Source: Octopus vulgaris
Taxonomy: Eukaryota
Length of the DNA stretch: 64,000 nucleotides
NCBI GenBank assembly: GCA_951406725.2
Contig: OX597835.1
Location: 30,194,001 to 30,258,000, forward strand
Direction: 5' to 3'
The notes under the pieces were generated by a model that made no database searches, was not told where the DNA came from, and saw only the letters and a program-made list of their open reading frames with translations. Positions 9,683-60,133 of this stretch are shown here, piece after piece. The translations under genes were made by a program, and so were the position numbers. Numbering within the stretch: position 1 is the stretch's first letter; each line of letters begins with the position of its first letter.

Positions 9683-11953
9683 TGACTAATATTATTATGT
9701 TGGTATTATACCTAGGGTTCCATATATTTGGTTTTGTACTTCTTTGAGAATGTTTAAGAAACCATAAGAAAATTACGTATTTGTTTTAAAATTTGAGTAC
9801 TAGGCTTACAAAGAATAAGACCAGGGTTCGATTTGTTCGACTAAAGGCGGTGTTCCAGCATGACCGCAGTCAAACGACTGGAATAAAAGAAATATACATA
9901 TATATATATATGTATATATATATGTATATATATATGTATATATATATATATATATATATATATATATATATATATATATATATATATATATATATATATA
10001 TATACACACGTACGTAAACATAAATGCAGATAGATAGAATGATGGCTAGAGAGATTGCTTATATGCTAACTACAACGATGTATGATGACAAAAGTCTTTT
10101 TTTTATTCAATTATATTAAATATTGTTCATACATCCTGGCTGTATTAGTTTTTATATCATGATGTTAATTCCATTGTTCGTTTTATTGTTGTTGTTGTTG
10201 TTGTTGTTGCCATTGCTGTTGTCATTGTTGTTGTTATTGTTGTTCTTGTCGTTATACATTTTATTGCTATTTTTTCATTATCAATATCTTCGTTTATTTT
10301 GGATTTTATCGGTATGGAATTTCTTTTCCAAGATGTTTGCTGGAACGTTGTTGAATTGTTTTGGTGAAGTTTTTTTTTTTTTTTTTTGCTTTTTCCTTCG
10401 TACACATCTGTGGTAGCGATGTTGATGGGGAATAGCAGGAGTAGATAAGAGCCGGCGGAGAAAAGAAACGGTGGCAGTAGGGTGAAATAGACACACATAC
10501 AAACACACACATACACACACACAGATATATATATATATATATATACATACATAGATACACAAACACATACAAACATATATATATATATATATATATATAT
10601 ATATATATATATATATATATATATATATATATACTATATTATTTATATATATATATATATGAATACACACAAACACATGCATATATATATATACCAAGAT
10701 ACACATACATGCTACATACATACATAAATACATATATATATACTATAATATATATATATATATATATATATATATGTATGAATACACACAATCACATACA
10801 TATATATATATTACATGATACATATACATACACACACACAAACGCCTATCTATCTATCTATCTATCTATCTATCTATCTATCTATCTATCTATCTATATC
10901 TATATATATACACACAGAAACACATGCATACATTCATACATACATACATAAAATAATACAAACATACATACACATATTTATATATGTTTGAGTGTGTATG
11001 TTTCACTGTGATCTTCAGTATCATTTTGCCTCTGCTCATCTCAAATTATTATACGTGACGTACAGGAACGCCGATCTTCTCCTCCTGCTTCTTCCCTTGT
11101 CCTCATCTTCGTCTTCATCTCCTTCTTCTTCTTCTTCTTCTTCTTCTTCTTCTTCTTCTTCTTCTTCTTCTTCTTCTTCTTCTTGTCCTTCTTCTTCTTC
11201 TTCTTCTTCTTTTCTTCTTCTTCTTTTTCTTCTTCTTTTCTTCTTCTTCTTCTTCTTCTTCTTCTTCTTCTTCTTCTTCTTCTATTGATAATATACATTT
11301 GCGTCTGTAAACAGTAAATGTGGTGTATGGAAAAAAAGAAATATTTTAATCTTACACACGCAAAGAGACACAAAAATTGACAAGCAGACAAATAAAGACA
11401 AATAAATGAGTAATAAATAAATAAATAAATAAATAAATAAATGGGTACAGGCTCTGTGGTAAGTAGCTTGCTTACCAGCCACATGGTTCCTGGTTCGGTC
11501 TCTTGGGCAAATGTCTTCTAATATAGCCTCGAGCTTACCAAAGCCTTGTCAGTGAATTTAGACAGAATATAGGCGCAAGGAAAAAAACAGGTACAGTTTG
11601 CTCATCACTTCTTTCTCTCTTTCTCTTTCTTTTTCCACACCTAACACACATACACACTCTCTCTCTCTCTCTCTCTCTCTCTCTTTTATATATATATATA
11701 TATATATATATATATATATATATATATATTTAATCAATTTAGGGTAGCAAAAAATTCAATAGAAATTTATCGCTACCAGCGGTCTAGTGGGAAAGAGAAA
11801 ATAGTCAAAGACTATATATATAAATTCAACAACAATTAAGGAATGGCCTTAATAGGCCATTCGGCCCACTAGAAGAGGCAGCCAGGACTCAAACCGCTAA
11901 GTAGTAGTAATTCAGAAATTAAATGAAAATTTAAAAACATTTACCCTAATTCA

Positions 11954-12052
11954 TCTTTAGACGATGCATCGTTTCGGTGTTTTTTATGGCAAACCAGCTT
12001 AATTAAATTAAATTAAGTCAATCTACCAAAGGTTACACCTCATCGGTAAAGA
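11954..12052 (-). ncRNA. Type-I hammerhead ribozyme motif (CCGAUGA core variant)
   Basis: Minus strand: TCTTTA-CCGATGA-GGTGT..ACACC-GAAA-CGATGCATCG-TC-TAAAGA; stem I is a perfect 6 bp and stem III lies in the palindrome ACGATGCATCGT. Confidence 0.75.
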
Positions 12053-12228
12053 AACCAGGAGAGACGGATATACACAATTGATGATTTTCTGACTAATTCT
12101 GAGATTGAATCAGCAGTTTATATTTACTGCTGATAAGTTGGCGCGAATACGATGGTTTTGAAAATTTTAGGGCAGATATTCCGAGGGCATTGATACAGAT
12201 GTCTCGTGTATATCCGTCTCTCCTGGTT

Positions 12229-12327
12229 TTTTTACCGATGAGGTGTAACCTTTGGTAGATTGACTTAATTTAATTTAATTAAGCTGGTTTGCCATAAAAA
12301 ACACCGAAACGATGCATCGTCTAAAGA
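12229..12327 (+). ncRNA. Type-I hammerhead ribozyme motif (CCGAUGA core variant)
   Basis: TTTTTA-CCGATGA(12235-41)-GGTGT..ACACC-GAAA(12306-09)-CGATGCATC-GTC(12319-21)-TAAAGA. Confidence 0.75.
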
Positions 12328-56880: not shown

Positions 56881-59539
56881 TTATACAATGTGCTCCGTGT
56901 CAGTGCTACTTAAAGTGGTGGTCCATGAGCCATCAGCTTTCGGTACGCGGCGAGTTTCCACAAAAGAAACATTATAAAATGCTAATGTAGTGTATTACTT
57001 GTTTACAAAATAAATATAAGATAAAAGAAATTGTCACCTTTTATTATATTAATTATATATATTGTTTCCGGTATAAATTAATATTACTAAGAAATATTAC
57101 CGGTCCCTAGCACATTGAAAAAAGAAAACTGCTAGTACGCCACGTCAGAGAGTTTGAGAAGCACAAATTTGTGACAGAGATTGCACCCACGTTTAGCCAT
57201 CGGAGACACTGCTCGAGCTTAGCTGGTACACCTTTCTGGGATACACCCATGGTCAACTCTGACCGAAGTGGGCCCTGTGTGTGTCTGGTTGTCTCTTATT
57301 GTTCCTCATCTTCTGCCTGTCTGTTTGTCTGTTTGTCTGTTTGTCTGTCACTCTGTCTGTCTGTCGGTCTGTGTGTCCTTCTCTCAGAATTGGATAAGCT
57401 GCGTTCTGAGAAGAATCAACGGGAAATGTCTCGTTCTCTTTCTCCAGAAATGGAGAATAGGTCAAGTGAGCAGTGAAACCTCCGCCTACCCCCCTCCTCC
57501 CCCTCCACCACCACCACCACCTCCTCCTCCTCCTCATCATCATCATCATCATTATCATCATCAACAAAATAAGCTTCACTATCTTCCTTCCTCCTGCTCA
57601 TTCCCGCCTCTTCAATTTTGTTGTTATTCTTGTTTTCCTTTTCCTTCTTCGTCTTTTCTTTTCATATTTCGTTTGCATCATTATTATCATCATCATCACT
57701 ATCACCATCCTCCTCATCAACATTATCATAATCATCATCTTACTCATCTACTTTCACCTCTCTCTTTTCTTCTTCCTCGTCTTCATTCTCCTTTGTTTTC
57801 TTCCTCTTCTTCCTTCTGATTCATCTTTTTCGTCTCCTTTCTTCTTTATCGTCACCTTCTTTCTTTTTTCCTCTCTCTTTCATCTTGACCTCTTGCTACT
57901 CCTATCGTTATCGCTTATTTATTTATTTATATATATATTTATTTATTCATTCATTCGTCAATTCATTCATTTATTCCGCAAAAATCTAAAGACCTCTCTA
58001 AAACCAGATACACTTCTGTACAGTGACTGCTACATTAATACCCTCACCACGACGACGACGACCACGACTACCACGACCACGACCCCCCCCCCACCACCAC
58101 CACCATCAACAACAACAACGACGACGACTACAAAAACTACAACAACAGCCCTTCATGTATTTAACTTGTAACTTGTAAAGAAATCTGGGAAATAGGCAAA
58201 ATCTCACGAATGGCATTAATTAAAGAATACCAACAACACCAACAACAAAAACAACGTCGGCAGCCATCTTAAATTCACAAACTTCTCACTCTCCAATACC
58301 CCTCTTCACTCTTCTTATCCTCCTCCTTTTCATCAGCTTCTTTCTTTTCTTTCTTTCTTCCTTTCTTTCTTTTCTTTTCTTTTCTTTTCTTTCTTTCTTT
58401 CTTTCTTTCATCAATTATTTCCTTTCTTAAACTTTGGATTAACATATTTCTATAGCCATTAGAGTTGAATTCTTTAAACATTTCTTTTCTTCTTTTCGTT
58501 TTTGAAATATTTATTTTCTGATGTTCTAAAATTTTGTAAACGGAATAAAACTAATATTATCGTTCGACTGGTGGAAGCAGTGGAGCGTCGAATGAAATAA
58601 TCTTGTGGTATGATGCTACCATCACTTCTACATTTCAGGTTCAAATCTCACTACACACATACCCTCATACACACACACACATATGTACATAATATTACAA
58701 GATTCAGTTCAAGAACCTTGTTTGGTGGCAAAAGCCAGACGTGGAATTACTAAATTCATATGTCCCGTGAATTTCAAACTCAAATTTTAAAATTCAAATT
58801 CGAAAATTCATGTATTCATTTGAAGCAAACAGTTTTTAATAATATAATATACTCACAATAATGTAAGGTACTTAATTATAACAATATAATGTACTAAAAA
58901 AAATTCGTTAGAAAAGGGTGTAATAAATTGACATCTGTCCATCAACTGTTACGTACATATATATGTGTATATATATATATATATATATATATATATATAT
59001 ATATATATATATATATATATATATATATATATATACGATGGGGTTCTTTCAGTTTCCGTCTTCCAAATCCTCTCACAAGGCTTTGGTCGACTTACGTCAA
59101 TAGTTGAATATACTTGCCCAAGGTGCTACGCAGTGGGATTGAACCCGGAACTATGTGGTTGGTAAGGAAGCTACTTACCACACAAGCAATACATATATAC
59201 TATACATACACACACACACAGACATACATATATATATACACATATACATACATATACACTCGTACATGTGCTCACACACACATGAACATACACATATATA
59301 TCCTTATAATTTCTGTGTGGTTCATGTGATCTCTTGACATTCAAATACATTATACCAAAACGAGTAATTTTATTCGTGTCCAACTCTCATTCACACCTCC
59401 GTATATATATATATATATATATATATATATATATATATATATATATCATTAGAAAAATGGACAAAAGCATAGATCAACCAGCACACCGATTGAACCATAT
59501 TTAAAACTTGTTTATTGATATAAAGTGATACATAACGGA

Positions 59540-59653
59540 ACTAACAGCTGTTTCTGATCAGATTCCCAGAATGCAGTCTATACATAAATGCGAAAATAAA
59601 ATTCTTCACCTTCATAAGGCATTCGAATTGAGGCAACCGTTCTTCATCAGAGT
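59540..59653 (-). ncRNA. Hammerhead motif with long stem II, in element ~59447-59915
   Basis: Minus strand: ACT-CTGATGA-A-GAAC..GATC-A-GAAA-CAGCT-GTT-AGT; stem III palindrome AACAGCTGTT; stem I only 3 bp. Confidence 0.6.
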
Positions 59654-60133
59654 GAATAAAGAACATACAAATATAGTAAAGATTATTTGGCAACATAACA
59701 TGGTAGTCCTGGTTTAGGACGAATGTTGCTGTAATTCAGCCCAAGAAGACTTCGTCTCCGGCTGGCTATACGACACATTCGGTGACGTTACATTTTCGAA
59801 CAAGGGAAATTTCTAAAAGCATACAATATAAACAAAAGAAAGAAGCAAGAGGTAAGAAAACATCGTTTAGACAAATAGTCTAAAAGCCGAATATGTTATG
59901 TGCACATAGCAATAATATATAATGTATGGATATATATATATATATACATTACTACTACTTAGTAGTAGCAGTAGTTGTAGTAGTAGTAGTAGTAGTAGTA
60001 GTAGTAGTAGTAGTAGTAGTAGTAGTAGTAGTAGTAGTAGTAGTAGTAGTGATAATAATAATGATAATGATGATGATAATAATAATAATAATAATAATAA
60101 TCATAATAATAATAATAATAATAATAATATATA

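Follow-up and report, generated by a model that had tools for sequence, protein, structure and literature searches.

A 64-kb stretch of the Octopus vulgaris genome (contig OX597835.1, positions 30194001-30258000; hereafter "the window", meaning this whole stretch) contains eleven type-I hammerhead ribozyme motifs that belong to dispersed families of mobile elements. The observation is real, and chance is excluded as its source. Comparing sequences, we consider it rather probable that these motifs are the hammerheads of Penelope-like elements (PLEs) with ends at (TA)n. Families D and D2 are 5'-truncated ends of PLEs of the Hydra clade, as F probably is too, and families A, C and E, which have no open reading frame (ORF), are units likely mobilised by Hydra enzymes. 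The identities of the elements are given below with high confidence. Two matters are at stake, namely the role of the hammerheads in PLEs and the question of what mobilises animal retrozymes.

Hammerhead motifs in the window and in the genome

The window is microsatellite-rich and has a GC content of 34%. Each motif in it consists of a CUGANGA-type core, followed by GAAA and GUH, with a palindromic stem III. The original prediction, made from the sequence alone, had placed ten such motifs in about six families at the sites listed in Table 1. The sites hold, but eleven motifs are present, plus a decayed twelfth (G12A, at 27961) that was absent from the earlier list and emerged in a relaxed scan; the families of the eleven number seven, because D (32.1/32.5 kb) and D2 (38.7 kb) are separate sisters, about 70% alike across the ribozyme. 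The conventional numbering of hammerhead positions and the known effects of changes at G5, A6 and G12 are used throughout.

A strict descriptor was applied that requires a core with U4 or C4, at least 3 bp in stems I and II, and a perfect palindrome as stem III, while allowing a long stem II. It is passed by seven of the eleven motifs and by no other site in the window; in 100 block-wise dinucleotide shuffles of the window, it matches 0.08 times on average (maximum 1). The four damaged motifs (31586, 45519, 51104 and 59650; the damage is given in Table 1) derive from families whose other copies mostly retain the core. In a relaxed scan, the remaining CTGANGA sites of the window also fail the descriptor, except 27961 and one weak match at 13174. 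Rfam, which had been proposed as a check, returned no match in the window at the gathering threshold, and the 150 matches inspected among the 564 of an E-value scan were all simple-repeat or hairpin artefacts.

Stem III is always a palindrome of 4-12 nt (one with a G-U pair); it makes a poor hairpin and pairs with a second copy, at a predicted -1.7 to -18.7 kcal/mol. Stem II spans 42-90 nt in the window families other than B, and in the four long types that pass the descriptor it folds as a hairpin (z -2.0 to -4.8). Whole-motif folding z-scores are mixed (-4.3 to +0.7) and are not used as support.

The (TA)n flanks emphasised earlier are present, but they are weak evidence by themselves: at 30% of the positions of the window, a (TA)5 follows within 150 nt, and the window contains 153 (TA)6 tracts against 64 per 64 kb in the genome sample described next. 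What counts is where the copies stop, namely at (TA)n and at points that are constant for each family.

To gauge the scale, an unselected sample of forty 10-kb stretches (400 kb) was taken at round coordinates on 26 contigs. It contains 23 descriptor matches in 17 insertions, compared with 0.23 in 30 shuffles; one match (L385) is doubtful. The window, with seven matches in 64 kb, has about twice the sample mean of 3.7, in step with its TA density. Stem II measures 34-78 nt in 11 of the 16 sample motifs outside arrays, mostly in families other than those of the window. The sample also includes an array (L384, G000:C1:20002000-20005000) of a 359-nt retrozyme unit with a canonical short hammerhead, in which five units and two inverted ones lie between (TA)n ends. 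Extrapolation gives roughly 160,000 motifs or 120,000 insertions genome-wide, with a Poisson range on the 17 insertions of roughly 70,000-190,000; the candidate counts from the searches below are lower bounds and far smaller. The genome searched comprises 2.8 Gb in 227 contigs, and that of the axolotl is much larger. If the sample holds, the density is about one hammerhead per 20 kb, far above the counts cited elsewhere for coral (over 6,000), Xenopus (about 9,000) and giant squid (235, by Rfam) and near the axolotl total (up to 120,000), and covariance-model surveys would badly undercount cephalopod ribozymes.

Coding and ORF-less families

Family copies were chosen by similarity to the window copies, and first-look candidate counts are lower bounds. 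Family D, with at least 1,505 first-look candidates (40 scored), is young: 41 of the 44 matches listed are full-length at 100% rounded identity. At one locus (L031, contig C19), a 4.65-kb unit with (TA)n on both sides consists of a pseudo-long terminal repeat (pLTR), an ORF, a 1.6-kb untranslated region (UTR) and a second pLTR; the pLTRs are 373-nt repeats, 98.9% identical. The open frame of 984 codons (957 aa from Met) is the sole complete one among four long D loci. Its product aligns end to end with 42 homologues and has a single-ORF layout, reverse transcriptase (RT) followed by a C-terminal GIY-YIG endonuclease (VIY..YIG). It contains RWK, and DKT in place of DKG; GxKF/Y is not conserved, and CCHH is absent, with no cysteine pair between the motif halves. 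The CxCX5C linker reads CKCRIKSKC, CxxC reads CQLC and CxH reads CVH, near E and N residues. Pfam gave no match for the D protein or four homologues, and the RT-endonuclease call rests on alignment and motifs. The protein is 39% identical to those of two further Hydra families, H1 and H2, and unrelated by BLASTP to that of the Neptune-type PLE of this genome (E 0.7). A quick RT tree, built from unnamed homologues with no outgroup, included D.

Behind the D cores, (TA)6 follows in 30 of 32 cases, 17 at +115 and 10 at +230. In its pLTR context D retains the hammerhead and occurs as partial tandem and inverted insertions. On its ORF layout, motifs, linker, pLTR hammerhead and (TA)n insertion, we assign D to the Hydra clade.

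Two side observations concern this element. The 3' UTR (L031:5793-6057) has an internal direct repeat of ~110 nt, about 81% alike, directly upstream of the pLTR. In addition, the only named homologue of the D protein is an ankyrin/RING protein model of Octopus sinensis (P0036), whose first ~200 aa are 70% identical to it (21% of the query); this start may be a domesticated fusion or an annotation artefact.

D2 has at least 2,238 candidates, and 6 of 30 loci have Hydra endonuclease coding sequence upstream of D2 and in the same orientation. F has at least 479 candidates, about 85% alike; its ends flank a broken Hydra ORF (RW, DKT, CxCX5C) in one of eight long loci, a weaker linkage than that of D2, and F is probably a truncated Hydra-clade PLE end. 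A Hydra protein query of the genome yielded at least 37,070 first-look candidates, of which 62 were scored, mostly open frames of H1 and H2. H1 (L211-L240, e.g. G000:C21:8155104-8162390) is a very active Hydra family with 708 aa from Met and a 2,590-nt unit in head-to-tail tandems, whose hammerhead has U4C and an extra U before GAAA. H2 (L241-L243, L245) has 711 aa from Met in a unit of about 3,355 nt, and its hammerhead has a 2-bp stem II, a GCAA loop and A-A at the stem-II base. The claim that no RT ORF accompanies the motifs holds inside the window, where tblastn with three Hydra proteins and one Neptune protein found no match, but not genome-wide: a search for parents with the same termini ties Hydra ORFs or parts of them to D, D2 and one F locus, and found none for A, C, E or B.

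The units of A, C and E are 469-474, 536 and 586 nt long, and their longest ATG ORFs are 23, 47 and 32 aa, respectively; first-look candidates number at least 1,937, 1,422 and 1,279. Each family has two fixed 3' ends at (TA)n, at +220/+315 in A, about +220/+310-330 in C and +275/+380 in E, to be compared with +115/+230 in D and +115/+210 in D2. The resulting tails are about 95-115 nt in A, C and E and about 97-115 nt in D and D2; the spacing is about 70 nt in H1 and H2, and the tail of the resident Neptune is 38 nt. Inverted 5' pieces of at least 45 nt were found in 13 of 20 loci of A, 13 of 28 of E, 7 of 26 of C and 16 of 19 of D, in a hand count from which edge-cut loci were dropped and in which some loci are two arms of one insertion. 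An E array on contig C12 starts and stops at (TA)n and has five hammerheads; its units differ among themselves by 0-1 of 470 nt, and from most other loci by 5-8. Contigs from four sequencing runs cover E including the unit-to-unit joint; the joint also occurs in runs of unspecified kind and is therefore silent on circles and expression.

In families B, C and F, variation is lower in the columns of the core (0.019-0.041) than in the remaining non-CpG columns (0.064-0.076). In family C (29 distinct copies), the stems covary, with C-G in 12 copies and U-A in 12 in stem I, and C-G in 19 and U-A in 4, and A-U in 24 and G-C in 3, in stem II; compensatory changes occupy 23 cells, as many as in none of 500 shuffles, a count that is not corrected for relatedness. 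Stem II of A, C and E (42-64 nt) is predicted to be a long hairpin rather than the short helix II of canonical type-I hammerheads, and no tertiary contact was identified in it. A, C and E fit the retrozyme type, in which a short unit without an ORF contains a type-I hammerhead and is repeated in complete or incomplete tandems, but they are a variant form of it. The original prediction is upheld as to the Penelope link, high copy number, diversity and covarying stems. Its reading of the motifs as non-autonomous elements or retrozymes fits A, C and E, but not D, D2 and, on one locus, F, which are truncated pLTR ends of coding PLEs. Hydra fragments beside A (L045/L176), B (L062) and E (L136/L180) were considered as parents and rejected as chance neighbours, being old and broken, and either on the opposite strand or set apart by other sequence.

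Family B, for which no coding parent was found, is about 200 nt long, with a minimal hammerhead and one fixed 3' end; its 30 loci include no tandem or inverted hammerhead pair. In its young U4C subfamily (B2), (TA)6 lies at +125-129 behind 30 of 30 cores. Longer copies have a common CA-rich upstream sequence of up to about 1.5 kb, and no ORF, whether of the Neptune type (GxKF, DKG, CX2-5CxxC, CCHH) or another, was found within about 8 kb upstream in five extended long copies. The active Neptune family of this genome carries a pLTR different from B. Most likely, B is the terminus of a distinct PLE line whose hammerhead is minimal. Minimal PLE hammerheads were reportedly described by Lunse et al. 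2017 (cited in PMC6765202). Most young B copies (L259, L260, L264, L265, L274, L278, L281) start right behind a pyrimidine-rich stretch ending in CAG of the longer copies; this stretch resembles a 3' splice site, and TA microhomology is an equally good reason for the start. The Neptune-type PLE (L317-L321, e.g. G000:C16:20834500-20843500) has an upstream ORF1, a 781-codon RT-endonuclease frame and (TA)n ends; its hammerhead apparently has U3-A8 for C3-G8, a covariation reported in Schistosoma PLEs.

In the window, the repeat search was dominated by microsatellites, and only its two inverted pairs were used. These are the head-to-head pairs at 11813-12468 (263-nt arms, 98%) and 32056-32627 (268-nt arms, 100%). 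The A and B insertions use a common (TA)23 tract (12459-12504). At 31363-32791, the body of an older C copy and its inverted 5' piece have (TA)n between them, and in this (TA)n a young D copy is nested. Family G, to which the decayed twelfth motif belongs, has two more matches in sample stretch L387. For the effect of C3G, found in one F copy, see PMC11167929.

Table 1. Hammerhead-bearing elements of the window and their parts (window coordinates; core and H17 as positions).
Feature	Position	Strand	Core start	H17	Remarks
Family A, inverted 5'-truncated copy with ~95-nt tail	11730..12075	-	12046	11960	Core CCGAUGA (U4C); 64-nt stem II; 12-nt palindromic stem III; ends at (TA)21, 11687-11729
Family A, main copy, 0.87 of 474-nt ORF-less unit	12076..12455	+	12235	12321	Ends at (TA)23
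Family B, older subfamily, ~200 nt	12506..12705	-	12644		Minimal hammerhead CUGAAGA-A-GAGC..GCUC-GAAACGUA
Family G, decayed long-stem-II hammerhead	27893..27969	-	27961		G12A; 69% relative in L003
Family C, 1.0 unit of 536-nt ORF-less repeat	31363..31909	-	31586		42-nt stem II; two stem-I mismatches
Family D, pLTR end with 115-nt tail, inverted	31935..32330	-	32175	32097	Nested in (TA)n of C insertion
Family D, pLTR 3' end, assigned to young Hydra-clade PLE	32349..32627	+	32508	32586	60-nt stem II; ends at (TA)12
Family C, inverted 5' piece of insertion	32650..32791	+			Split from C body by D copy
Family D2, 3' end, assigned to sister Hydra-clade PLE	38636..38900	-	38748		Canonical core; 59-nt stem II; ends at (TA)14
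Family E, 1.3 units of 586-nt ORF-less repeat	41712..42473	-	41985		A10.1-C11.1 mismatch; long stem II; bounded on both sides by (TA)n
Family F, 3' part, old, probably Hydra-clade PLE	45152..45935	+	45519		C3G, predicted dead; ~90-nt stem II, A-A at base
Family B, degenerate copy	51035..51230	+	51104		G5C, A6G, broken stem III; predicted dead
Family F, second copy	59445..59908	-	59650		One stem-II mismatch; interrupted by unrelated ~135-nt stretch 59682-59817

Three further places in the window are of note. Positions 52259-52577 hold head-to-head fragments of family C without a hammerhead, and 6107-6223 is a 3' fragment of an H2 relative without a core. At 3725-3885 there is a near-perfect hairpin of ~160 nt, the top spurious Rfam match, possibly an inverted PLE end or a miniature inverted-repeat transposable element.

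Proposed mechanism and alternative explanations

In the cycle that we propose, a tandem or partial-tandem copy would first be transcribed. Two hammerheads would pair via their palindromic stem III and excise a unit-length RNA, as predicted from their sequence and from other PLE hammerheads, for which a dimer layout with stem III pairing between copies is described (PMC4209133); the long stem II would be a peripheral add-on. Part of the unit RNA may then be re-ligated into a circle, and we put the chances of this step, and of a circular RNA as template, at about even. Next, a nick in (TA)n would be made by the GIY-YIG endonuclease. Reverse transcription would then begin downstream of the ribozyme, at one or the other of two internal sites separated by ~100 nt. 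The fixed ends themselves are observed, and reading them as start sites follows the in-vitro study of PAc, a PLE of Anolis whose tail extends from one RT start site to the other (PMC11167929). Finally, arrays and copies longer than one unit would result when the RT runs across the cleavage site, and head-to-head inverted copies when priming occurs on both strands; structures of both kinds are present in the genome. Most copies have their 5' end upstream of the cleavage site. The template was therefore whole at that point, whether by re-ligation or because it had never been cleaved.

Several observations weigh against this reading, and they are taken here together with the alternatives. The first alternative accepts the same elements but gives the ribozyme no part in copying: copying would use read-through multimer RNA that was not cleaved, and the hammerhead would be a passenger, weak or gated by protein. 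We regard this as unlikely, but it is the strongest competitor. In PAc, the one PLE studied in vitro, hammerhead mutants insert normally and cleavage is unneeded for insertion; cleavage itself depended on protein, and none of the reads had its end at the cut (PMC11167929). Of nine Xenopus retrozyme dimers, only one cleaved (bioRxiv 2026.07.22.740005). U4C, which is reported to lower hammerhead activity in vitro (PMC3088659), is common in A (14 of 20 copies, a young amplifying subfamily), B2 and H1; the E copies among the alignment rows listed have A10.1-C11.1, with G10.1 present in public contigs, and this subfamily too is amplifying. The cleavage site is crossed by most genomic copies. In family C, the number of pairs with change (6 versus 4.5) is not above shuffles, unlike the compensatory count. 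What speaks against a mere passenger is that cores are retained across many unrelated families and that stems covary. A weak hint that cleaved ends are used comes, in downstream-only queries, from 5' ends in A, where 8 of 39 tracts start within 25 nt after the cut site, compared with about 2 expected per bin; E has no such excess (3 of 37).

According to the second alternative, it is the resident Neptune PLE, or a PLE of some other clade, and not Hydra that mobilises A, C and E (and B). In this genome, (TA)n is indeed the target of an intact Neptune family with many 781-aa frames; the minimal hammerhead of B is of the kind usual in canonical PLEs (PMC4209133); and probe-versus-probe BLAST of A, C and E with Hydra pLTRs revealed no link beyond TA runs. 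Nevertheless, the tails of A, C and E (about 95-105 nt) match those of D and D2 (about 97-115 nt) and not that of Neptune, and their long stem II and 6-12-nt stem III match the architecture of D, D2 and F. We consider Neptune or another clade an improbable partner. We infer the partnership of Hydra with A, C and E, which appears fairly likely, from tail length and ribozyme shape, since no homology to a Hydra pLTR was found. As for F itself, its assignment depends on a single broken locus, in which a TA tract separates the pLTR from the ORF.

Thirdly, the tandem arrays could have been made at the DNA level by local amplification of one inserted pLTR, as in the satellite model proposed for Xenopus (bioRxiv 2026.07.22.740005). 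An array on contig C15, whose units differ by 1-3 and have an internal deletion, agrees with this model, and uniform arrays could reflect recent local duplication. However, arrays are scattered over many contigs and begin and end mid-unit at (TA)n, and the array in L384 has a two-unit inverted 5' block typical of PLE insertion, so we give this explanation slightly less credit still than the Neptune one. Lastly, the notion that the motifs are chance matches in a repeat-rich, AT-rich genome can be dismissed, even though TA flanks are common by chance and four window copies are damaged, in view of the excess over shuffles in window (7 versus 0.08) and sample (23 versus 0.23) and of dispersed families with fixed ends.

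Taken further, the proposed cycle leads to a bolder picture, which we offer tentatively as somewhat doubtful: ~10^5 hammerheads, mostly of an undescribed long-stem-II type overlooked by standard searches, and Hydra enzymes that would insert whole ORF-less retrozyme arrays by rolling round circular RNA, making this the first defined retrozyme-PLE pair in which both partners are active at present. In any case, this one genome combines Hydra ORFs that are intact and were active recently (D, H1, H2) with an active Neptune family and with young units lacking an ORF (A, E, B2 and the L384 array), all having the same target, and through this co-residence both the choice of partner and the question of circular versus linear template are directly testable.

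Comparison with known systems

Earlier work has described Hydra-clade PLEs, the hammerheads of PLEs and animal retrozymes; no publication was found on the long-stem variant, on the present scale or on retrozymes with PLE marks. The literature search covered octopus or cephalopod hammerheads and retrozymes and long stem II forms, with most subscription papers outside it, and found neither these families nor the long-stem form described. A 2026 octopus repeat annotation has 31 recently active PLE families, and a text search of that paper counted no use of "ribozyme" (PMC13282606); the families may be catalogued already without their ribozymes. The earlier suggestion of undescribed families has to be narrowed in any event: Hydra-clade PLEs with hammerheads and (TA)n targeting, including one octopus family, Hydra-1_Obim, are described (PMC8557442), while the present families were not found. 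The printed N-terminus and hammerhead of that octopus family differ by eye from D. Six short family motifs were not found in the supplement of the same paper, a weak negative since its sequences are line-wrapped.

The closest relatives are the Hydra-clade PLEs (Craig et al. 2021, PMC8557442). Like them, D has a single RT-GIY-YIG ORF with RWK, DKT and CxCX5C and without CCHH, inserts at (TA)n, and carries a pLTR hammerhead; the published ones have a palindromic stem III of 3-4 bp. Many published members also have an extra nucleotide on either side of the stem-II base, as do F and H2 here; the pair is U-U in many of the former and A-A in the latter. The differences lie in size: the 4.65-kb unit of D, with Asn-rich inserts in its 957-aa ORF and a 1.6-kb 3' UTR, is outside the length of "generally <3 kb", which is descriptive and not diagnostic, and loop 2 of 3-10 nt and tails of 30-40 nt there contrast with a stem II of 42-90 nt and tails of about 100 nt here.

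Animal retrozymes, for which a PLE origin has been proposed (PMC7229834; bioRxiv 2026.07.22.740005), resemble A, C and E in being ORF-less units of a few hundred nucleotides with a type-I hammerhead, from monomers to multimers, and in the proposal of mobilisation by PLEs (Cervera and de la Pena 2020, PMC7229834; Li et al. 2026 preprint). Unlike them, A, C and E have long stem II hairpins in place of the canonical loop 1-loop 2 layout. They also carry PLE tails and inverted 5' blocks and target (TA)n, traits that the retrozyme descriptions consulted do not report.

Family B agrees with the minimal PLE hammerheads (Cervera and de la Pena 2014, PMC4209133) in the bulge after A9, G10.1-C11.1, a 4-bp stem II, a 4-nt palindromic stem III and mostly single copies, and differs in the U4C of its young subfamily. 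Finally, PAc (Frangieh et al. 2024, PMC11167929), a Poseidon PLE, likewise has two internal RT start sites that define a tail, an AT-rich target and cutting of both strands, but it belongs to another clade and its hammerhead overlaps the ORF start, whereas the elements of the present genome have tails of about 100 nt and insert at (TA)n.

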